DNA from: an uncultured delta proteobacterium
GTDB taxonomy: Bacteria; Myxococcota_A; Polyangia; Polyangiales; Polyangiaceae
Assembly: GCA_963850305.1 (NCBI GenBank)
Contig: CAWKKR010000005.1
Span: forward strand, 1 to 64,000
Direction of reading: 5' to 3'
Length of the DNA stretch: 64,000 nt
Shown: positions 5,676 to 20,583 of the stretch, one piece after another
Numbering within the stretch: position 1 is the stretch's first letter
How the letters are laid out: each line of letters opens with the position of its first letter
Position numbers and translations under genes: made by a program
Notes under the pieces: model-generated
Database searches by the model: none
What the model was told of the DNA's origin: nothing
The model's input: only the letters and a program-made list of their open reading frames with translations

Positions 5676-6662
5676 TCACCTGCACTTCCCACCGACGCAC
5701 GCCGTCCCGGCCCCACACCTGGCGTCGCAGGCTCCGCAGTTCTGGGCGTCATCGCTTACCGGCAGGCACATTCCGTGGCAATAGGCGTCGCCGCCGGGAC
5801 AAGTGCAGCGGCCAAGCTCACAGGTCGAGCCGCCTGCGCAGACGTTATTGCATCCGCCACAATTGGCGTTGTTAACCGAGAAGTCGACGCACCCGCCGTT
5901 GCACACTGACTCGCCCCGCAAGGCACACGACACCCCCTTCGCGCATGCCCCAAGAACGCAGAGGGGCGGCCCGCCATCGTCCGGCGGGCAGACGCTATTG
6001 CAATACGAGGGGACAGATGGAGCACCGGGACCCCCAATTCCGCCAAGGCCTCCGCAGTGGCTGGCATTGGCGAGCGTGTCGATGCACACTCCATTGCAGA
6101 GCGTCTCCGGCACCGAAGGGAGACTCGCCGTGGGGCACGCGCATTGCCCTTCGACACAGATCTGACCTCCGGTGCAAGGGTTGCGGCACGTGCCGCAGTG
6201 GTCGGCGTTGCTGGCAAGGCTCACGCAGGCGCCGTCGCAGTTAGTCAAGGGGGCGCCCGCGTCCGTGGCGCATGTCGGCGAGCAGCGGCCGCGGAGGCAC
6301 ACGGCGCCCCCGCTGCAAGCCGCGCCGCACCCGCCGCAATTACCCGGGTCCGTCTCGACACTCGTGCACACACCGTCACAGTCGTCGGGGCGCGCCGGAT
6401 CCGTGCGCCTGCAGCGCCGAACGTCGAGCGCGCCGGCATCAGCTTCGCCGTCGGGCGCCGTCGAGGTACGGGCCGCGCGGCCCCCGTTCGCGAACGAGGC
6501 GTCCTGCGCGCGATCGCCGCCGATCGCACCGGCGCTACCACCCGTGGACATGGCACGACCTGGCCCGGCATCCGTCGCGTGCGCCGGCTCCGACGCGCGC
6601 CCGCAGGTCGTCGCAAGGAGCGGTAGGGTCAGGCAACTCAACCCAACAAGCGCCTTCCTCAT
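5676..6662 (-). CDS. Secreted Cys-rich repeat protein (Stig1/MXAN_6577-like repeats)
   Basis: Signal peptide, then repeated C-x-G-x-C-V-x4-D/N-x2-N/H-C-G-x-C-x3-C units. Confidence 0.85.
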   Translation of the reverse strand: MRKALVGLSCLTLPLLATTCGRASEPAHATDAGPGRAMSTGGSAGAIGGDRAQDASFANGGRAARTSTAPDGEADAGALDVRRCRRTDPARPDDCDGVCTSVETDPGNCGGCGAACSGGAVCLRGRCSPTCATDAGAPLTNCDGACVSLASNADHCGTCRNPCTGGQICVEGQCACPTASLPSVPETLCNGVCIDTLANASHCGGLGGIGGPGAPSVPSYCNSVCPPDDGGPPLCVLGACAKGVSCALRGESVCNGGCVDFSVNNANCGGCNNVCAGGSTCELGRCTCPGGDAYCHGMCLPVSDDAQNCGACDARCGAGTACVGGKCR

Positions 6663-8137
6663 TGCAGACTCAACTCATGGAAGATGACGTAAGGAGTATT
6701 GGCATTGTAGATACTACCGCCCCCCTGCAGTGACATTGTGTAAAGCTGGTTGCCGAAGCCGCTATTGGGTGGCGGTGGCGGATTCTGTCCTTGCACCCAT
6801 GGGCAGCCTGAGGCTATGCCATAGCCCCAGCGCAACGAATACGCTGTATCGGAGATGTAATGAGTGGTCTGGAGATTGGGGTTGTCGAGTCCGTACCCGT
6901 CCATGGTGACGTCCGTGTTCCAAGTGAGCGGACCACACGGGCCACACGGATTGTTGCACACCGGGCGCTCTACGATGTATTCGAACGAGTGCGACGTCGT
7001 AATGGTATTGCCATCGTAATGAATGATCTGATGCACGCTGTACCCTGTAGAAAAGTCGACGACCCATACGTTCCCACAGACCGCGAGGGGGATTCCGTCG
7101 TATGGTGGGGGGAAGTTCCCATTGCAATCGTCGTCGCCCGTTTGCACGACAATCTCATCTCCGGGCTTCACAGGGAAGGCGCAGGTCATTGACGCCGCTG
7201 CTGGAAAGTACTGCGTGTAGATGGAGGCCGAATTGTTCGGACACCCCAAGGCAAGCGCTAAGCCGGCTTGTATGATTGCATTGTCTGGCTGCCTGTCGGT
7301 TTCGGAAGCGGTCAGCGTGGACGCGGTGCCGCCGATGCCGCTCCAAATAAGGGAGATATAGGTGTTGTTTGCCGCATAGAATGAGGGGGCCTGGAATGCG
7401 GATACGCCCTGCCAGTAGTAAAGCTGTGGGTTCACGCCGGTATTTACCATAACTGGACCGGTCCAAAGAGTATTGATGACCTCGTCCTGGGTTACCATCG
7501 GTCCGCCACTCCGATTCAAATCGGCGACCCAGACTGGATCAACAATCTGCAACGGCTTCGACACCCATCTTTGCCATTCCGCGAACCGCTGCGGCTCCGC
7601 GCCCGGGTCCGGCCGCGGCGGGTAACCTTGCGCGTGAAGTTGCGCCTGCGTGAGCGCGAGGGGATCGCCGCTGAGTGCGGGTCGGGCTCCCACGACCGGC
7701 GCCGGGTTCTGATACGCGGTGTCGAGCGTGAATGTCGAAGGGTCGTCGAGATCGATAGTGTACGTCGCCCTTGCACCGCTACTCCACGTACTGCACTCAA
7801 TGCTGAGCGAGCTGCCCCACGAGACCGGCGGTTTGAAGAAACGCAAGACACCTTCTTGCTCGACGTTCACTGTCGCGGTTTGCGCTGACGCCGTACCCTG
7901 CTGAGAGATCCGACAGCGAGCGTTCGGGAGAACAGTCACCGCGATCGCCGACTTCGGTCCCTGACCGTCATCCGCACTGGGAAGCGGAGCCGAAGACGAT
8001 GCGTCGACACTCATCAGAGCGTTGGTCACGGGAGCGACTGATGCGGTCGATCCCGAGTCAATGCTGGAGCACGCGGATAGAAATGACGTCGCCACCGCCA
8101 TTGGCGCCAAAAGTCTCGCGCGCTCTTTGCTTATCAT
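6659..8137 (-). CDS. Secreted lipoprotein with G1 (eqolisin-type glutamic) peptidase domain
   Basis: Probable start ATG 8137 (MISKER...FLSAC lipobox); pro-region DPLALTQAQLHAQGYPPRPD; LIWSGIGG, IIQAG (catalytic Q), VKPGDEI, SFEYIVERP (catalytic E). Confidence 0.7.
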   Translation of the reverse strand: MISKERARLLAPMAVATSFLSACSSIDSGSTASVAPVTNALMSVDASSSAPLPSADDGQGPKSAIAVTVLPNARCRISQQGTASAQTATVNVEQEGVLRFFKPPVSWGSSLSIECSTWSSGARATYTIDLDDPSTFTLDTAYQNPAPVVGARPALSGDPLALTQAQLHAQGYPPRPDPGAEPQRFAEWQRWVSKPLQIVDPVWVADLNRSGGPMVTQDEVINTLWTGPVMVNTGVNPQLYYWQGVSAFQAPSFYAANNTYISLIWSGIGGTASTLTASETDRQPDNAIIQAGLALALGCPNNSASIYTQYFPAAASMTCAFPVKPGDEIVVQTGDDDCNGNFPPPYDGIPLAVCGNVWVVDFSTGYSVHQIIHYDGNTITTSHSFEYIVERPVCNNPCGPCGPLTWNTDVTMDGYGLDNPNLQTTHYISDTAYSLRWGYGIASGCPWVQGQNPPPPPNSGFGNQLYTMSLQGGGSIYNANTPYVIFHELSLQ

Positions 8138-8285
8138 CGGAACAAACTCCCTTGTGTTGAGCACGGAGCGGTCGCTCCTATGCCGGATTTGCCGTTGTAT
8201 TGGTTCCCCGGTAACGTGACGGCGTGGGTGCGAGCGTAACAGAGAGACGCGGAGGTCGGAAGGCTCGCTCTTCGTCGAGAGGCCA

Positions 8286-8369
8286 AAATGTACCAAAAAT
8301 CCCCGTCCTTGACGGCCCGGGGCCGTCGTGGACGGCGGGGAGCGGCGGGTCGACGACGGGGACGGGGTT
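8286..8369 (-). repeat. Structured interspersed repeat, copy 3 (truncated)
   Basis: Same orientation as copy 2; lacks the GGTCGCCCTGGTCTCC end and is joined to a transposase fragment. Confidence 0.9.
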
Positions 8370-8371
8370 TG

Positions 8372-8525
8372 GAGCACTTGCTCGCCCGGACACTCTGCTC
8401 GGCTGGTACCGGAACCTGGTGGCTGCGAAGTATGACGGCTCGGAACGCCGCGGTCCGGGGCGACCGCGCACGCGGACGACGCTCGCCGAGCTCGAGCTCA
8501 CGACGATCGCAACTCGCAACTCCAG
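8372..8525 (+). pseudogene. Fragment of an integrase-core (rve)-type IS transposase
   Basis: ARPDTLLGWYRNLVAAKYDGSERRGPGRPRT...LAEL matches the PdTLLrWhRxLVArKyDgS..rGPGRP segment of these transposases. Confidence 0.75.
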
Positions 8526-8564
8526 CACGCAAAAGTGCGCCCCCGTTCGACCGAAGCCGACCGG

Positions 8565-8694
8565 GGGCTTTGTCGGAGATACGAAGCCTCTCCGCGGGCT
8601 TTGTCGGAGATACGAAGCCTCTCCGCGGGCTTTGTCGGAGATATGAAGCCTCTCCGCGGGCTTTTCATCGGAGATACGAAGCCTCTCCGCGGGC
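8565..8694. repeat. Tandem repeat, 4 x ~31 bp (GGGCTTTGTCGGAGATACGAAGCCTCTCCGC)
   Basis: Head-to-tail copies with no spacers; each unit has a CGGAGA..TCTCCG hairpin. Confidence 0.95.
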
Positions 8695-8964
8695 AATCAG
8701 TACGACGGAGCGCTCGCGCCGGACATTCACTACTGTACGCGATTTTTGTTCGGGCACAAGCAGGCCGTCTTCTGGGCTCGGGCTCGACGAGCTAACTATG
8801 AGTGCCCGGATCCCGGAGCCAGCCGCCCCCCGACGGCTTTCGGATCGGGACGCCAGCGGTCGCGATGCAAGCGCGCTGGGCCGCATCGGTGAATCCGTGC
8901 CCGTGACGCACCGTCAGACCGGTATCAGGGCGGGCTTTCTGCCCTCGTGAAAGGATCGGTCCAA

Positions 8965-9150
8965 ATGAGCGGCGGAAAAGGCGGCGGCGGTGGCAAGGGT
9001 GGTGGTGGCTCCAAGGGCGGCAGCTCCGGCGGCGGGAGCAAGGGCGGCTCCGGCGGCGGAGGGACGCGCGGAGGCGGGAGCTCGGGCGGCAACTACCCGA
9101 GCACGACGGGCAACCCGTCGGGTGGCGGGCGCGGCAACGGGCCGCGCTGA
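8965..9150 (+). CDS. Small Gly-rich protein with PSTTGNPSGGGRGN motif
   Basis: AAGGA RBS upstream; MSGGKGGGGG...NYPSTTGNPSGGGRGNGPR. Confidence 0.65.
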   Translation: MSGGKGGGGGKGGGGSKGGSSGGGSKGGSGGGGTRGGGSSGGNYPSTTGNPSGGGRGNGPR

Positions 9151-9447
9151 GCAACCCTGTCGAGGCGCACGCGCGCTCAACGCCCGAAATGTTGGGCCCG
9201 CGTGTCGTCCTCCAAAGCGATCGGCGCAGCGTTTCTTCGTGCGCTACGCTCGCGGTAGCGCCAGGCCGCCCCCACCCCCCTTAGGCCGAGCTCGAAGACG
9301 CGAGCTCCGCTCCCGAGGCCGACCCCCTCCTCACTGCGTGTGCCTCGGGAGCGTGCGCGGCGCGGTTCTCCGCTCACCACAGCTCAAGCTGCTCGAGACG
9401 TTCGTCGGTTTTGCCGGACCGCCGCTCCGCAAGGGTCGTCGCCGCGC

Positions 9448-10020
9448 TCATCGTTTGCCTTGCTCGATCCGCCGTTCGCCCACGATCCACGGCAGCATCC
9501 GCGTGATGTTACGCGCGTCGTCGATGCCACGGTGATGCGCGCCCTCGAGCGGAAGGCCGCAGAGCTTCAGCGCCTCAGCCATCCCGGGCTTTTTCTTCAG
9601 CCCTTGCACTTTCGTGAACTCCGTCTTCAGATTCAGGTGCGGCGGCATGTTGTTCGGCACGCCGTGCAGCGTGCAGTCGCGTTCGAACTGGATGCGGTCG
9701 AAACGGCCCCAAGATCCGAACACGAGCGGATGCCGGTGATCGATGAGCCGAGAGCGCAGGCTGGCGAAGGCTTCGGGGAAAAGCGGCGCCCCGTCCACCA
9801 TCGCCTGCGTGATGCCGGTGAGCGTGGTCACGAAAGGGAGGAGTCTCGGACGCCGGACTGGACGTACGAACGATTGAAACTCGTCCACGACGGCTAGCGT
9901 CTGCGCGTCCGCGAGCACGGCGCCGATCTCGATGGTCTCCATCTGCGAGGGCGGTAGCGAGCCGTCGTCGCTGGTCGTCGCCTCGAGATCGATGACGAGG
10001 TAGAAGCGCGGGGCGGTCAT
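9448..10020 (-). CDS. DEDDh 3'-5' exonuclease (ERI-1/KapD-like)
   Basis: LVIDLEATT, ETIEIGAV, FQSFVRP, LTGITQ, SWGRFDRIQF, HHRGIDDARN; start ATG 10020. Confidence 0.92.
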   Translation of the reverse strand: MTAPRFYLVIDLEATTSDDGSLPPSQMETIEIGAVLADAQTLAVVDEFQSFVRPVRRPRLLPFVTTLTGITQAMVDGAPLFPEAFASLRSRLIDHRHPLVFGSWGRFDRIQFERDCTLHGVPNNMPPHLNLKTEFTKVQGLKKKPGMAEALKLCGLPLEGAHHRGIDDARNITRMLPWIVGERRIEQGKR

Positions 10021-10130
10021 GGCTCCCGCCGCTTCAGCCGCTCGATGCTCTCGATCGCGCGTTGCATTCGTTCGCGCCCGACGCTGTTCGCCGAGTGGAT
10101 CTTGATCGTCGGCGGTTCGAACGCTCGGCG
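10017..10130 (-). pseudogene. C-terminal fragment of a cyclic-phosphate-processing receiver (cREC) domain protein
   Basis: AFEPPTIKIHSANSVGRERMQRAIESIERL* overlaps the exonuclease start (ATGA); the N-terminus is replaced by an IS4 fragment. Confidence 0.65.
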
Positions 10131-10310
10131 TCGAGTCGGGACTTCGGCACCGTGGTGAACAAGACAACATAGCTTGCCGCTTCTCGGTCGAGGTCCGAGA
10201 CTCTCGTGCCGCGCTCGCGAACGAGTCGAGCGCGAGCCGTCTCGGCTTGCGGCTCCGGGAGGCGCATCACGACGAGCCGACCAGCGATCTTCTGGTCTCG
10301 TTCCTTGCAC
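10131..10310 (-). pseudogene. IS4-family transposase internal fragment
   Basis: GRLVVMRLPEPQAETARARLVRE...AASYVVLFTTVP resembles the IS4 DDE segment RLvaxRLPxxxAexaRxR...YvllxTnlP. Confidence 0.65.
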
Positions 10311-10319
10311 GACCACGTG

Positions 10320-10697
10320 TCTCCAATACTGAGCGAGAGCGACGCTCTCACGTGGTGGAACTACGCTGGCGGCAAAGCCAATCTCCTCCTTGCTCGCCTC
10401 GTGGAGACCGAGCTCGGCGGGCAGTGCGTCGTGCGCAACAGCAGCATCACTTGCAAAGCGGAAGCGGGGCGGAGCGTAGTCGCACTCGAGGAAGTCATCC
10501 GGAAGCTCGCGGTGGAAGGCCGACCGAATCTTCAGGACGCGCTTCGATTTGCCCAGTCGTGTCTCGGTAAACAGCGGCTCTCGAAGTTTCAGCCGTGCCT
10601 CCCGGAAGCGCAGCTCAATGAGTTCTTGGGTGAGGCATTGGATTATCGGGGGGCGGCGAAGGCATGTCAGCGTATAGAGGAGAGGCTATTAAGCTAA
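10320..10697 (+). pseudogene. C-terminal remnant of an Lhr-like DEAD/DEAH helicase (BrxHI-like)
   Basis: LTWWNYAGGKANLLLA and RLSKFQPCLPEAQL are typical C-terminal motifs; no helicase core upstream. Confidence 0.6.
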
Positions 10698-10722: not shown

Positions 10723-11440
10723 ATGAAGATGCTTTCGGGGTTCAAGGTAGTCGCCGCCTTCGACGAGATCGTCGATCGTGCTGAGCGCACGATTGTGATC
10801 GTCACACCGTATTTCGACCCGTGGCCGCATCTCGCCCAGATCCTCCTCCAAAAGCTGGATCGGAAGGTCCCTGTGGATATGCTCCTCCGCGGTGGTGAGG
10901 ACCGGGAGAAGGGTGCGACAGCCGCGGAGCACTTCGTTCAACGGGGCGCCCGCGTGCAGTTTCTCGATCGTCTCCACGCCAAAGTCTACTTGAGCGAGCA
11001 GCAAGCCCTTCTCACATCGATGAACCTCCTCAAGTCGTCGCGAGACTCTTGGGAAGCTGGCACCCTGTTCGACGCGACGGAGGACGCCGCGAGCTACCAG
11101 GAGATCGCGGCGCTGGCGGGTGGCCTCTTCCAGACGAATAAACCTTCCGGCCACGTCGGAAGGCATGAGGTCGCGAGGAACGTCCGAGGTGACAGGCGCG
11201 TCAGCCTCCGCGCGCCAGCGTTCGAAACGAAGCCAGGGGAGCGCCGCCGGTCACTGCATTAGGTGCGGAGAGTCCGTCAAACCCAATCCTGAGAAGCCCC
11301 TCTGTCGAGACTGCTTCGGGTTGTGGGCAGAGTACAAGAACGAGGACTATGCGGAACACTTCTGCCACCTGTGCGGCCGAGAGTCGGGCACTTCGGTGGC
11401 GAAGCCTCTGTGTCGTCCTTGCTGGGATAAGACGGCCTGA
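10723..11440 (+). CDS. PLD-superfamily (Nuc-like HKD) protein with C-terminal tandem zinc ribbons, one frameshift
   Basis: IVIVTPYF, LHAKVYLSE..ALLTSMNL in ORF 10723; GHCIRC..KPLCRDC..FCHLC..KPLCRPC in ORF 11120. Confidence 0.8.
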
Positions 11441-11897
11441 ACAGCAGTCGTTCGGTGTGGTTATTGATTGGCACGGTAACCGGACGACCGGTGCGCTCCG
11501 AGGCGCGCGTCGGCAAGGTACCGAGGGAGCTCGGACACGACGTGAAGTTGTTCTCGAAAACCTGGCGACACCTACCCGAGCAAAGCTCCCCCCGCCTCGG
11601 GAGACTGACACACCCTCTCAGGTGCGCCCGGACGATCACTCCCGAGGCATTTCCCACACGAGGCCCATGACCAACGAGAGTGATCTGCCCTCCGACGGTT
11701 GGTCCGCCGTGGCAGCCGCCCTCCGTAGCTGTGCATCGGCACTCGCCGAGCTCGCGACGGCGATGACGGTGCTCGTCGCGAACCGGAGGGTCGAGCGACG
11801 TCGGTCCCGAAGCGCCGCAGCCATGGCACGCTGTCGGTACTGCGTTTCGGCGAAACCAAGCGAGGTGGATGGGCACTTTTTGCGAGAAATAGTGGGG

Positions 11898-11926
11898 TTG
11901 ACAAGTCAGGAAACCCGCTGCAAGCT
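11898..11926 (+). promoter_or_regulatory. Sigma70-type promoter of the XRE-kinase-TPR operon, with a palindromic operator over the -35
   Basis: TTGACA-17 bp-CAAGCT, 6 nt before GTG 11933 (leaderless); TGAC-AA-GTCA palindrome at 11899..11908. Confidence 0.6.
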
Positions 11927-11932
11927 CTGGAC

Positions 11933-12226
11933 GTGGCATCCAAGCTTGGTTCGTTTCTTCGAGGTGCTCGGGAGACCCGAGGTCTCGGGATAAAACGTGC
12001 CGCCCCGGAGATCGGAGTCACTTATTCCTACTTAAGCAAGTTGGAAAATGGCCTCGTAACGCCGTCGGAAGAGACGGTGGGCAAGCTTGCGGAATATTAC
12101 GATCTGAATGCCGAAATGCTTGGAGTTCTGGCTGGACGTCTCCCCGACGATGTCGTGAAAATTCTGGAAGGGGACCCGGAAGGCGCGATCACTGACTTGA
12201 GGGCGCGCTTTGGCTCTAGCCCGTAA
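11933..12226 (+). CDS. XRE-family HTH transcriptional regulator
   Basis: LGSFLRGARETRGLGIKRAAPEIGVTYSYLSKLENG..PSEETVGKLAEYY. Confidence 0.92.
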   Translation: MASKLGSFLRGARETRGLGIKRAAPEIGVTYSYLSKLENGLVTPSEETVGKLAEYYDLNAEMLGVLAGRLPDDVVKILEGDPEGAITDLRARFGSSP

Positions 12227-13297
12227 CCAGATCCTTGCGTACGTGCCGACTTGTGCCCCTGTGAACGGGCTCTACGAGAATATTTCTGCCATCGACGGGA
12301 ATGGCGGAACGGGCTTTTTTTCAGTGGTCTTCCGGAGCACCGAATGCGTGACCGGACGCCAAGTTGCTCTCAAGTTTTTTGTAGATGGGAATGACACCTA
12401 CAGAAGGGCTTCGTTCGATCGCGAAGCGCGACTCTTGTCGACCATATTTCGCGGAGAACCTTTGTTCGTTCAAGCCATGCGTCCCCAGGAGAATCTAGTT
12501 CTCACTGTTCCCTTCCCCGGTTTGGGGAACGTTAATTGGGATCTGCCTTATGTGGCGTTCGAATGCGATTCCGAACGGGAACGTTGAGAAGTTCTGCGGC
12601 CGTCCTACGTCCGTTCACGAGATTTCACGGCGCCTCCGCGTTTTTCGTCGCATGTGTCGATGCGTTTCGAGGATGCATCATCTCGGGTGCGGGCACCGAG
12701 ACTTGAAGCCCGGGAACTTTTTTGTCGGTGCAGGCGACGTAATCAAACTCGGTGACTTTGGCACAGCGCGACTTTTCACTCCCTTGGAACCGTCTCTCGT
12801 CCAGATGTACGCCGGTCCGGTTGGCGATTTGCGTTATGCCGCACCGGAGGCTCTTGCGTGTCTAAACGTGAACACTGCGTTTTCGCAGCGTGCCGATGTC
12901 TACGCCCTGGGCGCGATCCTCTTCGAGATGCTGACGGGGCGACCCCTTTTTGAAGAGATATGGCGGAATATCGGCCAGCTTCACCAGTTCTCGCTCTCTA
13001 TGGCGACGGTCGGCGAGCAACAGAGGGAGAAGGTGTTTCTGGGGCTTATTGACAAGACGTCATGGTCGATCCCGCAAGTACGGGCGCTGAATCCGGACAT
13101 ACCCCGATGTGTGCACCACCAATTAGAATCAGGTGGTTGCGGAATTGGCTCAACTCGACTTTCGAAAGCGTGAACTGGGGCTCACCCATGTGCATCGGTT
13201 GACGCGCATTTGTGAATTACTATTACTGCAAGAAGAGCGACGACGCGCGAGAAGACTTCGCCGAGAACAGTCGCTAGGAGCTACGGTCGATGCTTGA
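12210..13297 (+). CDS. Cytoplasmic Hanks-type Ser/Thr protein kinase (two frameshifts)
   Basis: GGTGFFSVVF, VALKFF, FDRE, HRDLKPGN, KLGDFG, YAAPE, DVYALG across ORFs 12210 and 12550; manually read tail ends at TGA 13295-13297. Confidence 0.88.
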
Positions 13298-15067
13298 AAC
13301 CCTCACTGCGAACCCGCAGCCTCATCGTGTGCCCACTCGGGGACCGAGCCGCGTATTGCACTCAGCCCGAACACGGAGGAAGTGTTCCAGCAGGATGAGC
13401 CACTGCTTGTGGGCGGCCCACAGCTCAATATCGTGTCCGAGTCGAAATTGACTGTTCTCGGGAGTCCCGACGGTCTCGTTTCGAAGACGGCGGAGCGCGC
13501 ATTTTTTGAAGAACACTTCGTGCGGTACGAAGTAGAGGCACTAAAGAGGGCGCCGCTGGACCCGTCTCGTGCCGTTAGGGTGGCTATCGGATTTTTAGCG
13601 ACAGGTTCGGCCGAAAAGGCCCTGGAGGTTCTGGAGCCTTGAGTGAGACCTCCGACTATTGGGTGCGTCACTATTGCGGTATTGCAAAGGCAAGGCTTGG
13701 GCGGTGGAGCGAGGCCGAGTCGGCGTTCAAAAATTGGCAACGGAAAGAGCCTTGGACCATCGACCGTTTCAGGCGTGGGGGCGGACTTATGCAGCAGCGG
13801 AAATTTGTGGAGGCAAAAGAGGTTTTGGATCGCGCTCGCGAGAAGCCGGATGTGGATGCATTCACGCTCAATGATTGCGCCGTCGCGGCGATCGAGAATC
13901 GGGATTTGCGCGGGGCTTTGAGACTATTGCGGCGTGCTCTCCGCATAGATGATGCTTGCACGGTAGCGCTCAACAATGCGGCAGTATGCTATCAGTTGCA
14001 GGGTTTCAAAGAGAAGGCAAAGCGGCTGTATCTTGCTGCATTGCATACCGACCCTGATTGCGTGTCAGCGGTACATAATATTGCCGAGGCGTACATTTTG
14101 GAGCGGGATTTCGGCGCAGCCATTGGGCTGTTGGATGAGTACAGGAAGCGGCATCCAGCGGACATGCGCGTACTGGAGCGGCTGGCGTGGGCGCATGGGT
14201 GTCTGGGGAGTCGTGATAAAGCGATCAGCCTTTTGCGTGAAGGCGTGCAAATTAGCAGCGAAAAAATCCGACGCTGCTTAACAATCTCGGCGTAGCGCTG
14301 TGGGCAAAAAGTCGGCTGGATCTCGCCGAGCCTGTATATCGCAAGGCAATTCAGTTGGATGCGGTGAAGTTGGATTTTCGGCTGAATTATGCCTATTTGA
14401 TGGCGGCGCGGCAGAGGTGGGCAGACGTCTTAATGCTGCTTCCGTCGCCAGAGGAGATGCGCGGGAATGTTGATGCCGGTGTTGCTTCGTTAACGCGTTG
14501 GTGTGTCATGGGGCATGCGAAGATGCAAAGCGGGAATTGGTTGATGCAAGGAATGCATTCCCGGACGACCCAGGCTCATCACATGGCTGGGATTCTTGTT
14601 GGCCTCTCGCGTGAACGAGCTGGACGCTGCGATCTCGCTGCTGTCAGAAGGGAACAGAAAGCATCCGGCGGATTGAGTATCGTCAACAATCTCGCCTATG
14701 CCCTGCTAAAGAAGGGGAATCTGCCAGAGGCCGAGCAGTGCTGGAACCGCACAAGCCGCAAATCGATATGCCGACGCATCCGGTAGGAGTGTTGCTGCGG
14801 GCGACGTGGGGATTGCTGCGGATTCGTGAAATGCATTCGATGAAGGCATGCGGTTCTATGGATAGCCCGGCGGCAAGCTCATGGAAATCTGGCAGACCGA
14901 ATCGAAGAGAAGATGCTTGTTGAGCGGGGCCGGTACCTGTTGATGAACGGTAATGGCGGGAGGCCGAGGGTCTGTTAAAGAAGGCCATTCGAACCGGGGC
15001 AGACGTCGAATTTGAGCGCGAAGCAGGAGAATTGCTGGCGTTTTGTGGTGCCCGAGGGAGTGCGTGA
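13290..15067 (+). CDS. Large TPR-repeat protein (multiple frameshifts)
   Basis: AGGAG RBS and ATG 13290 overlapping the kinase stop; TPR helices (ALNNAAVCYQLQG, AVHNIAEAY, LNNLGVAL, VNNLAYALLKKG) in ORFs 13382, 13639, 14355 and 14738. Confidence 0.8.
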
Positions 15068-15115: not shown

Positions 15116-15860
15116 TCAGTTTCTGACACGGTGAAAGTCGTGATTCCCGCCACTTCCGCGACGTTTACAACTGAAGGCGTCTCCTTGGGGATTCGAACCC
15201 CCGACAAAGACGGCGCGCCCGAGGGGCGTCCTCGTCGACGCGGACGACGCCGTGGCCGTAAGGGCCTCTAAGAGCAATCCCTCGCCCGCACCGCGCTCGT
15301 GCAGCGTCTCGCGCTCCATGTACCCGCGTGCGACCCGTTCGGACCGGTGTCGGGTCGTGCCCATGATCGTGTCCAAATCCTTCCCATGCCGGGCGGCGGT
15401 CGTGATGAAACCCGAGCGGAGCGAATGCGCTCCGAAATCGCTTAAGCGAGGCCCGCCAACCTCGCGTACAGCGAACGCGGTCGCGCACCGCCGACGGCGA
15501 AAGCCGCTCGCCGATTTGCTGGTGCTGCCCAAGCTGCCGGAAGATCGGGCCCTCGACGATGCTGCTCGCTGCGAGCCAGGCGTCGAGCGACCGCATCGGG
15601 CAGTGCTCAAGAAGGTTGTGAAGAAGATCGGAACCTCCTCGCCCCGGCGTTCCTGGTCCGTCTTGCTCAGCGCGACGAACACGACGCCACCCTTCGGCGC
15701 GCGTGTGACGTCGGCACTCGAGCGCAACGAGTTCGGCGTCGTCGAAGCGCCGCACACCAACCGATCGTCGAGGAGCGCTGAATCCGTATCGTTGCGTACC
15801 GAGGTCGCTGCGCCGTCACCGGGAATGACTGCCCCGACGTTCTAGAAGCGGCTCACATTC
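15116..15860 (-). pseudogene. Cre-like tyrosine recombinase/integrase remnant (N-terminally truncated, frameshifted)
   Basis: ELVAL, SKTDQERRG, CPMRSLDAWL..EGPIFR, FGAHSLRSGFITTAA, TRHRSERVARGY (H-x-x-R, H and Y catalytic residues). Confidence 0.85.
15176..15202 (-). mobile_element. att-like core identical in form to a tRNA 3' end (tRNA-Glu-like)
   Basis: Minus strand GGGGGTTCGAATCCCCAAGGAGACGCC = T-arm + acceptor strand + discriminator G + CC; no 5' tRNA half present. Confidence 0.7.
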
Positions 15861-17004: not shown

Positions 17005-18221
17005 ACAGCGACAAGGACGCGCGCGTGGTCGTCACGATGAACGGTGGCTCGTCGAGCCTGAAGTTCAGCGTGACCACTGCTGCCGGCGCGCCGCGACGGT
17101 TGCTTCGGGGGGTCGTCTCATCAATCGGTGCCGAAGGGGCGACGCTCTCTCTCGAGAGGGTGGGCGGTGAGATGGAGTCGCAAGCCGTGCCGGGTATCGA
17201 TTACCCGGAGGCTGCCCGCATCGTCCTCTCACAGCTCGGACCGTACGGCGGCCCTGGGAGAATCGCGGTGGTCGGGCATCGCATCGTTCACGGCGGTCCG
17301 AACCACGATGGCGCAACCCGCGTCACTCCGAAGCTCCTCGAGGAGCTTCGGGCACTTGCATCCCTCGACCCCAATCATCTACCGGCGGAGCTCGCGATCG
17401 TCGAATCGACGACCGCGCGCGCGCCGTCCGTTCCACAGGTCGCTTGCTTCGACACTGCCTTTCACCGGACGATGCCGCGCGTGGCGCGGATGCTCGCGCT
17501 CCCGAGAAGGTACGAGACGTTCGGCGTTCGGCGATACGGCTTCCATGGGCTCTCGTTCACCTTCCTGATGGAGGAGCTCGCCCGTGTCGCCGGGGACACC
17601 GCAGCGCGTGGGCGAGTCGTGCTGGCGCACCTCGGCGCGGGCGCGAGTCTCGCGGCCGTGCGCGACGGGATGTGCGTCGACACCACGATGGCGTTTACGC
17701 CGACATCGGGTGTCATGATGGCGACACGGTCCGGGGACCTCGACCCAGGCCTGCTCGTTTGGCTCCTCCGACATGAACGCCTCACCGTCGATGCGCTCGA
17801 TGATCTCGTGAACCACCGCGCTGGGCTCCTCGGAGTCTCCGAGACGACGGGAGACATGCGTACTCTCCTTGCGTGCGAGTCAAACGACCCGCGTGCCCAA
17901 GAGGCGGTCGCGCTGTTCTGTTATCAGGTGCGGAAGGCGATCGGTGCCCTGGCGACCGCCATCGGCGGCCTCGACACGCTCGTTTTCTCGGGCGGGATCG
18001 GCGAGAAGGCGTCCGTGATCCGCGCGCGGGTCGGACAGAGCATGGAACACCTCGGCATCGCGATCGACGAACGGTCCAACGCTTCGAGCGCGCCGGTCAT
18101 TTCCCCGGATTCGAGCGCGTGCGTCGTGCGCGTGATTGCGACCGACGAGGAGTCCATCATCGCGCGCGAAGCGCTCAGTGTCGTCGCAGAGAGTGCGACC
18201 TCTCGCCAAGGAGCAAATTGA
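17001..18221 (+). CDS. ackA: Acetate/propionate kinase
   Basis: [58 protein letters not shown]. Confidence 0.95.
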
Positions 18222-20583
18222 TGGCCACCGGGATCTCGAGTGAGTTGCTCAAAAAGATGGACGCCTACTGGCGAGCCGCGAATTATCTCTCGGTCGGCCA
18301 GATCTACCTCCTCGCAAACCCACTCCTGCGCGAGCCGCTTCGCCTCGAGCACGTCAAGCCGCGCCTTCTCGGTCACTGGGGGACCACGCCGGGTCTGAAC
18401 TTCGTCTACGTGCACATGAACCGAGCGATCGTCGAGCGCGACCTCGACGCGATCTACGTCATCGGCCCCGGTCACGGCGGCCCGGGTATCGTCGCGAACG
18501 CGTATCTCGAGGGGACGTACAGCGAGGTCTATCCAGCATCTCGCGGGACGAAGAGGGAATTCGGCGCCTGTTCAAGCAGTTCTCGTTTCCAGGAGGCATC
18601 CCGAGCCACGTCGCTCCAGAGACACCGGGCAGCATCCATGAAGGCGGCGAGCTCGGCTACTCTCTGTCGCACGCGTTCGGCGCGGCGTTCGACAACCCGG
18701 AGTCTGCTCGTCTGCTGCGTCGTCGGCGACGGCGAGGCCGAGACCGGGCCCCTCGCGACGAGCTGGCATTCGAACAAGTTTCTCAATCCCGAGAGCGACG
18801 GCGCCGTCCTGCCCATCCTCCATTTGAATGGATACAAAATCGCGGGCCCCACCGTCCTGGCGCGCATTCCGCGGGCGGAGCTCGACTCGCTCCTTCGCGG
18901 ATACGGATGGGCGCCGCGCTTCGTGGAGGGGGACAACCCGGCGGAGATGCATGCAAAGATGGCGAGCGCGCTCGACGACGTGCTCGACGAGATCCGTCGC
19001 ATCCAGGGCGACGCCCGTCAACGTGGCATCACCGCAGCGCCCCTGCTGGCCGATGATCGTTCTCGTGACACCCAAGGGGTGGACCGGGCCGAAGGAGGTC
19101 GACGGGGTGCCAATCGAGGGGACGTTCCGCGCGCACCAGGTTCCGCTCGCTGCGCTCGCCGAGAAGCCGGAGCACCTCCGGCTTCTCGAACGTTGGATGA
19201 AGAGCTATCGACCCGAGGAGCTCTTCGACGAACGTGGCGGGCTCGTTCGCGAGCTTGCGGAGCTGCCGCCGAAGGGCGCGCGGCGCATGAGCGCGAACCC
19301 GCACGCGAACGGCGGGCTCCTCCGCGTCGAGCTCCGCGTGCCGGATTTTCGCAGAGTACGCGGTCGATGTACCCGCGCCCGGGACGACCGAAGCCGAGGC
19401 GACGCGCGTACAAGGACGGCTCTTGCGCGACGTGCTTACCGCGAACGCTGACGCGCGGAACTTCCGCGTTTTCAGCCCCGACGAGACGGCCTCGAACCGC
19501 TGGAACGCGCTCTTCGAGGTGACGAACCGCGCTTCCGTCGCGGAGATCGTCGCGGGCGACGATCACATCGCGCGCGACGGCCGCGTGATGGAGATGCTGA
19601 GCGAGCACCAGTGCGAAGGGTGGCTCGAGGGCTACCTCCTCACCGGACGTCACGGCTTCTTCGCGTGCTACGAGGCGTTCATCCACATCATCGATTCGAT
19701 GTTCAATCAGCACGCCAAGTGGCTGAAAGTGACGCGCGAGATCCCGTGGCGCCGACCCATCGCGTCCCTCAACATCCTGCTTTCGTCGCATGTCTGGCGT
19801 CAGGACCACAACGGCTTCAGTCACCAGGATCCGGGCTTCATCGACCACGTCGTCAACAAGAAGGCCGACGTGGTTCGGGTCTATCTTCCGCCGGACGCCA
19901 ACACACTCCTCTGCGTGACCGACCACTGCCTCCGCAGCGTGAATTACGTGAACGTGATCGTTGCCGGGAAGCAGCCGTCCTTGCAGTGGCTCACGATGGA
20001 GGCTGCCGTCAAGCATTGCACCGAGGGAGCGAGCATTTGGGAGTGGGCAAGCAATGACGAGGGGGACGACCCCGACGTCGTCATGGCATGCGCCGGCGAC
20101 GTGCCGACGCTCGAGACGCTCGCAGCGGTTGGCTTGCTCAGGGCGAGCTTTCCGGACCTCAAGATTCGCGTCATCAACGTCGTCGACTTGATGAAGCTTC
20201 AGCCTGCGAGCGAGCACCCACACGGGCTCTCCGACCGCGAGTTCGACACGATGTTCACGAAGGACCGGCCGATCATCTTCGCGTACCACGGCTACCCGTG
20301 GCTCATCCACCGACTCTCCTATCGCCGAACGAACCACAAGAACATGCACGTGCGTGGCTACAAGGAGGAGGGATCGACGACGACACCGTTCGATATGGTC
20401 GTCCGAAACGATCTCGACCGCTTTCACCTGGTGCAAGACGTGATTGATCGCGTGCCATCGCTGGGCTCGCACGCGGCACACCTCCGTCAACGGATGACGG
20501 AGAAATTGGTGGAGCATCGCGAGTACATCTCGGAGCACGGTAAGGATCTGCCGGAAGTGCTCGATTGGCGGTGGCCCACATGA
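18221..20583 (+). CDS. xfp: Phosphoketolase (XFP), several frameshifts
   Basis: [76 protein letters not shown]. Confidence 0.95.

Follow-up and report, generated by a model that had tools for sequence, protein, structure and literature searches.

A three-gene XRE-kinase-TPR operon in an uncultured delta proteobacterium, a candidate mobile defence module related to PDC-M71

The stretch of DNA analysed here (the window) comprises 64,000 nt of contig CAWKKR010000005.1 from the genome of an uncultured delta proteobacterium, G000, with coordinates on the forward strand. It carries a real three-gene operon encoding an XRE-family helix-turn-helix (HTH) repressor, a soluble Hanks-type kinase and a tetratricopeptide repeat (TPR) protein, whose relatives are enriched near defence and mobility genes. 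We favor, at a probability of roughly 0.55, a horizontally moving three-gene defence module of the abortive-infection or toxin-antitoxin type, in which the TPR protein would restrain a toxic kinase. The genes and signals of the operon are as follows.

11933..12226, + strand: XRE-family HTH repressor, intact, 97 amino acids (aa) (Pfam HTH_31, E 1.7e-12; HTH_3)
12210..13297, + strand: soluble kinase of the Hanks type, read-through length about 361 aa (C-lobe piece matching Pkinase, E 1.5e-23)
13290..15067, + strand: TPR protein, about 595 aa in relatives, no enzyme domain (TPR_2, E 2e-15)
11895..11916, + strand: putative operator palindrome over the -35 box TTGACA (11898-11903), 12/14 of the family consensus, right half degenerate
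11921..11926, + strand: weak -10 box CAAGCT, 17 nt past the -35 box and 6 nt before the GTG start, aligned with the TATACT-like boxes of homologues

The first-pass annotation, made from the sequence before any database search, had placed three overlapping, co-oriented genes at 11933, 12210 and 13290; both the positions and the Pfam matches agree with it, the XRE and kinase genes overlapping by 17 nt and the kinase and TPR genes by 8 nt. Its statement that this DNA is richer in A/T than the surroundings also holds, as the GC content of the block (0.560) is the lowest of 609 sliding windows of the same length (mean 0.655, sd 0.034; genome 66%). The window XRE is 35-49% identical to 26 cognate XREs, and the read-through kinase 43-46% identical to sequences P0003-P0005 over 92-97% of the query. 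No second copy of the operon was found in G000.

Searches with the read-through kinase retrieved about 20 full-length relatives, mostly of 320-380 aa and with 30-46% identity. A profile from 17 relatives separated the 159 loci fetched, 49 of which scored 200 bits or more and the others 165 or less; since the 159 are the matches listed from two scans, the family comprises at least 49 loci, 5 of which are duplicates or near-duplicates of another. Among representatives at 50% identity, about 140 of the best 150 entries were single-domain proteins of the family kinase type. The kinase thus appears to belong to a distinct family.

Among the homologues, the XRE-kinase-TPR order is almost invariant. 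An XRE homologue lies upstream of the kinase in 44 of the 49 loci, four of the misses being contig edges and one (L116) a 5′-truncated remnant, and a homologous TPR gene of about 600 aa lies downstream in 39, all ten misses having 239 nt or less of downstream sequence. Since the TPR profile derives from these downstream genes themselves, its score is circular; the genes align end to end. No kinase without a TPR partner was seen among the 49 loci wherever the flank suffices, and the later finds L302/L307 and L331 each hold all three genes. Genes overlap at 14/16 XRE-kinase and 18/26 kinase-TPR junctions, and pairwise identities correlate among the three proteins (Mantel rho 0.69-0.77), which reflects co-inheritance only. 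A fourth conserved operon gene was rejected, the largest recurring neighbour cluster consisting of three restriction-modification (RM) methylases.

The named hosts span three phyla, Thermodesulfobacteriota, Acidobacteriota and Ignavibacteriota among them. The family was not found in 40 relatives, and two phylum samples of further genomes contained the family in 0/400 and 1/400 (five candidates scored per genome). When 400 genomes of the host phylum were searched with the XRE, the family was not found, six genomes giving weak matches of 61-72 bits versus 118 for the window protein. The GC content of the operon falls below that of its flanks in 17 of 18 loci. These distributions point to a rare, sporadic and mobile operon family, of which intact natural copies exist (e.g. 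L098, L110, L302 and L331).

Gene context was tallied for the 19 distinct loci whose flanks reach 3 kb or more. Neighbour open reading frames (ORFs) were picked greedily, and 149 of the 174 were scanned with Pfam at a cut-off of E ≤ 1e-12; 110 neighbour ORFs were scanned with PADLOC. According to Pfam, RM or BREX genes stand beside 4/19 loci and integrase or transposase genes beside 7/19, giving a union of 10/19. PADLOC adds L088, L090 and L008, which brings the loci with defence-like neighbours to 7/19. None of 18 control loci, a random draw from 67 loci of generic kinases (141 ORFs), had such genes, one Uma2 gene not being counted. The homologues are thus enriched beside defence and mobility genes.

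One intact copy (L302/L307) resides in a 214-kb provirus, G431, within a tRNA/tmRNA array. On contig C1 of this provirus (L302, L307, L326 and L327), the operon is surrounded by a permuted tmRNA and, over the stretches read, by eight tRNA genes. An att duplication around this copy was rejected, no tRNA-His repeat of at least 12 nt being present on the far side. A peptide-pattern search of viral contigs for the kinase returned generic kinases only among the best 80 matches. At L007, the kinase gene and the TPR gene are each interrupted by a copy of one mobile element. The two copies (7711-10009 and 11326-13929) are 99.7% identical, measure about 2.4-2.6 kb and lie in opposite orientation, and one carries an 816-aa ORF.

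The window kinase retains a glycine-rich loop of the form GxGxFS, together with VALK, RE, HRDLKPGN, DFG, APE and DVYALG motifs, and it also has a Gly-Asp P+1 loop, an activation-loop Tyr and a basic C-terminal tail. Across the family, 132-133 of 133 kinases retain the catalytic Lys, Glu, Asp, Asn and DFG-Asp, and 131/133 have HRD; since the catalytic residues are all conserved, the family kinase is probably active. No transmembrane stretch above a KD19 value of 2.0 was detected in the 133 kinases (15 exceed 1.8), and no extra domain was found, in agreement with the first-pass description of a soluble kinase with all its catalytic motifs. The best relatives in the PDB are of the PknB and MAPK types, while the ESM Atlas gave generic kinase and TPR clusters only.

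The P+1 loop sets this kinase apart, with Asp after the Gly in 94/113 family kinases versus Gly-Thr/Ser in 109/109 generic kinases. Combined with an activation-loop Tyr that is near-invariant in this branch (129/133), it might, on an unlikely reading, denote a tyrosine- or dual-specificity Hanks kinase; in itself it predicts an unusual substrate specificity. An Asp after the P+1 Gly is shared with Wee1/Myt1, a motif resemblance that serves as a lead. The EGD triplet is described as exclusive to subdomain VIII of the Wee1 family in the available part of PMC3818516, and this motif of Wee1 kinases is also covered in the available part of PMC8668995. In the family, Pro, Val or Arg precedes the Gly, and Glu does so in 0/108; with no Wee1 among the best 60 of 812 PDB matches either, Wee1 membership was rejected. 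A search of the PDB with the short P+1 motif gave no kinase match.

The TPR partner was modelled from an intact relative, L098. The AlphaFold model (pLDDT 91.6, pTM 0.82) consists of uninterrupted helical repeats from residue 61, and the best listed Foldseek matches are helical-repeat solenoids with no enzyme domain. The N-terminal arm is acidic and rich in Ser/Thr (0.166 versus 0.091), the first 70 aa being net negative in 26/27 proteins; conversely, the last 30 aa of the kinase carry a net charge of +3 to +10 in 26/26. The most conserved residues of the TPR protein form a C-terminal patch (N474, Y477, T516, G518, Q555, K556 and E560), the polar ones clustering in the last repeats.

Upstream of the XRE gene, the family shares the consensus GGGTTGA-N8-TCAACCC, in which TTGACA is embedded; 17 nt beyond it comes a -10-like box, usually just a few bases ahead of the XRE start codon. 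A match of at least 12/14 within 150 nt upstream of XRE was found in 31 of 36 loci, counted over those with at least 120 nt upstream and with six duplicates removed, versus 0 of 105 control kinase upstream regions; the operator occurs twice in six family loci. A conserved operator over the -35 box supports the autoregulation that had been proposed, and we infer that the XRE protein binds its own palindrome. At the level of sequence, the operon thus resembles a type II toxin-antitoxin module, which is autorepressed through a promoter palindrome. The same annotation had cast XRE as the antitoxin; nothing points to such a role, the protein belonging to an HTH family that elsewhere adjoins an IrrE-type metalloprotease (L319). 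At L319:708-1427, a distant XRE relative is followed by an IrrE/ImmA-type metalloprotease, which hints at the origin of the regulator.

In the window, a consensus promoter scanner found nothing at the -35/-10 site, and the transcript of the operon is probably leaderless. The whole G000 genome contains nine sites of at least 12/14 and none above 13/14, so that the window site counts by its position only and an XRE regulon in G000 was rejected. Run alone on viral contigs, the operator motif recovered the intact operon in 2 of 54 stretches, both one and the same sequence; the other 52 had no family XRE match. On a 178-kb viral contig (L299/L300), the operator pattern is matched exactly at two sites separated by 1.3 kb, and no family XRE lies nearby.

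The first-pass annotation did not recognise the layout as any named system. The kinase and the TPR protein prove to be homologous to a PADLOC candidate, PDC-M71A/B: the TPR proteins of three homologues match PDC-M71B alone, one match each, and the kinase matches PDC-M71A weakly, while no NCBIfam equivalog fits either protein as a family name. According to the available part of its source preprint, the PDC class goes back to cassettes that lie embedded within BREX, DISARM or type I RM systems (Payne et al., bioRxiv 10.1101/2024.01.29.577857), and the available portion of the main text of that preprint does not contain the term "PDC-M". One ecology preprint treats PDC-M71 as indicative of calcareous grassland.

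In three true PDC-M71 loci, a soluble kinase of about 350-380 codons overlaps a downstream TPR gene in the same order; the kinase has a glycine-rich loop ending in FS and a Gly-Asp P+1 loop (GD-x-x-Y-x-P-P-E), and the TPR proteins share a C-terminal NNLAY...ATRGL module (hhalign probability 98.6, 334 columns, 18% identity), and the conserved C-terminal patch is partly common to PDC-M71B. In contrast, M71A proteins score 64-87 bits on the family kinase profile, on which a family member run alongside reached 422, and they have HQD where the family has HRD. M71B measures about 500 aa versus about 600 aa for the family TPR protein, and none of the three M71 loci, one of which ends near a contig edge, has a family XRE or operator (best 10-11/14). 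The matches of the kinase to PDC-M71A (E 4e-12 to 4e-13) are weaker than those to mad6 and PD-T4-6 and do not identify an orthologue. Likewise, the best stretch of the TPR protein on PDC-M71B is limited to some 105-110 of 515 positions (E 2e-18 to 2e-23) and falls short of full length, whereas true members score 349-382 bits across almost the whole model; the G000 protein has no PDC-M71B match, but this copy is frameshifted. In a quick tree, M71A groups with the family (SH-aLRT 96), its branch being long and marked as unsure. The operon is best described as a distant sister branch of PDC-M71, of shared ancestry and not a member, and it links this candidate with a second branch, to which existing profiles give weak and partial matches.

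Other known systems were compared as well. Staphylococcal Stk2, PD-T4-6, MAD6 and PglW have the Hanks-type fold in a defence setting and give generic profile matches; unlike what membership would imply, NCBIfam scores lie far below the cut-off for MAD6 (70 versus 460) and PglW (29 versus 990), and PADLOC matches to Stk2 and PD-T4-6 span the kinase core only. None of these four is known to have a dedicated TPR partner and an XRE. HipBST resembles the operon in combining a regulator, a kinase toxin and a separate kinase-inhibiting protein (PMC10627512, in the part available), but the family kinase is Hanks-type, with a Pkinase match and no HipA match to suggest the fold of HipBA or HipBST, and the third protein is a 600-aa TPR array. 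KKP is a prophage-borne Ser/Thr kinase module with an anti-phage role (PMC11341870, in the part available), whereas no phosphatase or second kinase recurs beside the family. Unlike in Avs, no STAND NTPase is present in the TPR protein or as a recurring neighbour. The operon is therefore not a member of HipBST, Stk2, KKP or Avs. No description of the XRE-kinase-TPR layout was found in the open literature, subscription journals lying outside this coverage; PMC13092281 and PMC7159879 were rejected as precedents since, in the parts available, they concern a HipA-type kinase and other systems, respectively.

In the mechanism that we propose, XRE would sit on the palindrome over its own -35 box, an operator recognised by its conservation, and keep the operon low. 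The kinase and the TPR protein, made together from overlapping genes, would form a complex in which TPR holds the kinase off, possibly by pairing its acidic N-terminal arm with the basic tail of the kinase. Upon infection, a phage protein might bind the TPR superhelix, or the supply of TPR might stop, and the released kinase would then phosphorylate host or phage proteins and arrest the cell. This last step is drawn by analogy with Stk2, KKP and HipBST. Few kinase-based anti-phage systems have been characterised, and none is described with a separate TPR partner in the literature searched; with its operator, repressor, kinase, partner and intact natural copies, the family constitutes a compact test case.

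Several observations weigh against a TPR-restrained defence kinase. The control loci were matched as generic kinases only and scanned in Pfam alone, and 7 of the 19 long loci (L103, L095, L004, L099, L102, L118 and L100/101) have housekeeping or unannotated neighbours only. No examined locus is nested inside a single defence system, although L096 lies between two RM gene sets, and neither the GenBank phage set nor the PLSDB plasmid set gave a match to the family. PDC-M71 is itself a prediction. The TPR N-terminus is partly ordered in the model (pLDDT about 55-85, three short strands), unlike a typical disordered antitoxin, and toxin-antitoxin pairs less commonly show the arrangement seen here, with the kinase ahead of TPR.

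The same defence role could follow the opposite logic, a kinase silent on its own being activated by a TPR pattern receptor once this binds a phage protein. TPR arrays serve as phage-protein receptors in Avs proteins, and a conserved C-terminal patch, partly shared with PDC-M71B, beside a variable repeat array (mean identity 27%) would suit such a receptor, while the insertion of the same mobile element into both genes at L007 fits either logic. We hold activation to be rather unlikely, since tight autorepression and translational coupling are typical of toxin-inhibitor modules and no locus with enough flank has a kinase without TPR. Whichever the direction of control, the family and PDC-M71 might together represent an unrecognised superfamily of immune kinases gated by a TPR receptor or inhibitor, with perhaps a tyrosine- or dual-specificity kinase of Wee1-like chemistry reached by convergence; this wider proposal is an unlikely one.

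Two further explanations dispense with immunity. A selfish module for addiction or lysogeny control, stabilising or regulating its mobile element with no direct anti-phage effect, would account for integrase or transposase neighbours (7/19) being as common as defence-like ones and for the copy on a provirus, and KKP is, in the part of PMC11341870 available, a prophage kinase module controlling virion production. It is improbable given that many copies are bare three-gene insertions among housekeeping genes, with no element to stabilise, and that the sister PDC-M71 stems from a defence-embedding screen. Ordinary accessory signalling, in which TPR would scaffold a kinase substrate and the kinase might phosphorylate XRE to tune a stress response, seems quite improbable: the lack of a conserved fourth gene or a G000 regulon, the sporadic distribution and the low GC all speak against it, even if the host has about 100 kinase-like candidates and distant XRE relatives pair with an IrrE-type stress protease.

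The window copy is interrupted. Frameshift-aware alignment to the family profiles located two single-base insertions (+1) in the kinase gene, near 12578 and 13128, and nine single-base deletions (-1) in the TPR gene, across TPR profile positions 68-592; with one further TPR shift near 13340, read by eye, the total is about 12 breaks. Neither gene contains a nonsense codon or in-frame stop. A phosphoketolase gene 3 kb away (18221-20574) has four single-base breaks in 2.35 kb, a lower rate than the nine in 1.5 kb of the TPR gene, and rpoB elsewhere in G000 is intact. Since the damage is indel-only and also affects a metabolic gene, a local assembly error is suggested, and the window copy may be either a mis-assembled working gene or, given the higher rate in the TPR gene, a decayed one. 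The broken phosphoketolase adjoins intact acetate kinase and P-type ATPase ORFs.

The flanks of the operon in the window contain the following features.

10206..10697, + strand: C-terminal piece of an Lhr/BrxHI-like helicase (PADLOC BrxHI, E 7e-12)
10723..11440, + strand: PLD-domain protein with a zinc-ribbon tail in another frame (PLDc_2, E 6.6e-10; DZR_2, E 8e-4)
15116..15760, - strand: frameshifted remnant resembling a tyrosine recombinase (motif read by eye)
15188..15205, - strand: att-like tRNA 3′-arm fragment, a weak 18-nt exact match to tRNA-Arg on contig C11 (E 0.018)

The helicase tail and the PLD protein announced on the left are thus present, matches of the latter to DrmC being weak and below the cut-off. 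The integrase remnant with an att core announced on the right fared less well. Its motif is one that we take to be tyrosine-recombinase-like; the remnant has a 55% identical paralogue on contig C6, no match in the Pfam or NCBIfam models, and none to an integrase ORF from the four family loci compared, and the att core is weak.

Immediately left of the island lies a DEDDh-type exonuclease (9448-10170, - strand; RNase_T, E 8e-17), preceded by a small glycine-rich ORF (8947-9150, + strand) and by a unit of about 31 nt repeated four times in tandem, with copies 81-100% alike (8561-8697). Further left are a protein with a weak peptidase A4 match (6659-8377, - strand) and a lipoprotein-like protein with STIG1-like cysteine repeats (5676-6662, - strand).

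Outside the window, L088 (3121-4930) and L096 (10896-12710) share a three-gene cassette (237, 146 and 216 aa) after the TPR gene, adjoining type I RM genes; this cassette, without a match in Pfam, PADLOC, PHROG or NCBIfam, may be a further defence candidate. A separate kinase family of about 310 aa, unrelated to the XRE-kinase-TPR operon, was encountered at L128, L015, L019 and L144; it follows greA and enolase in L128 and L015, and has a TPR gene 3′ of the kinase in L144.

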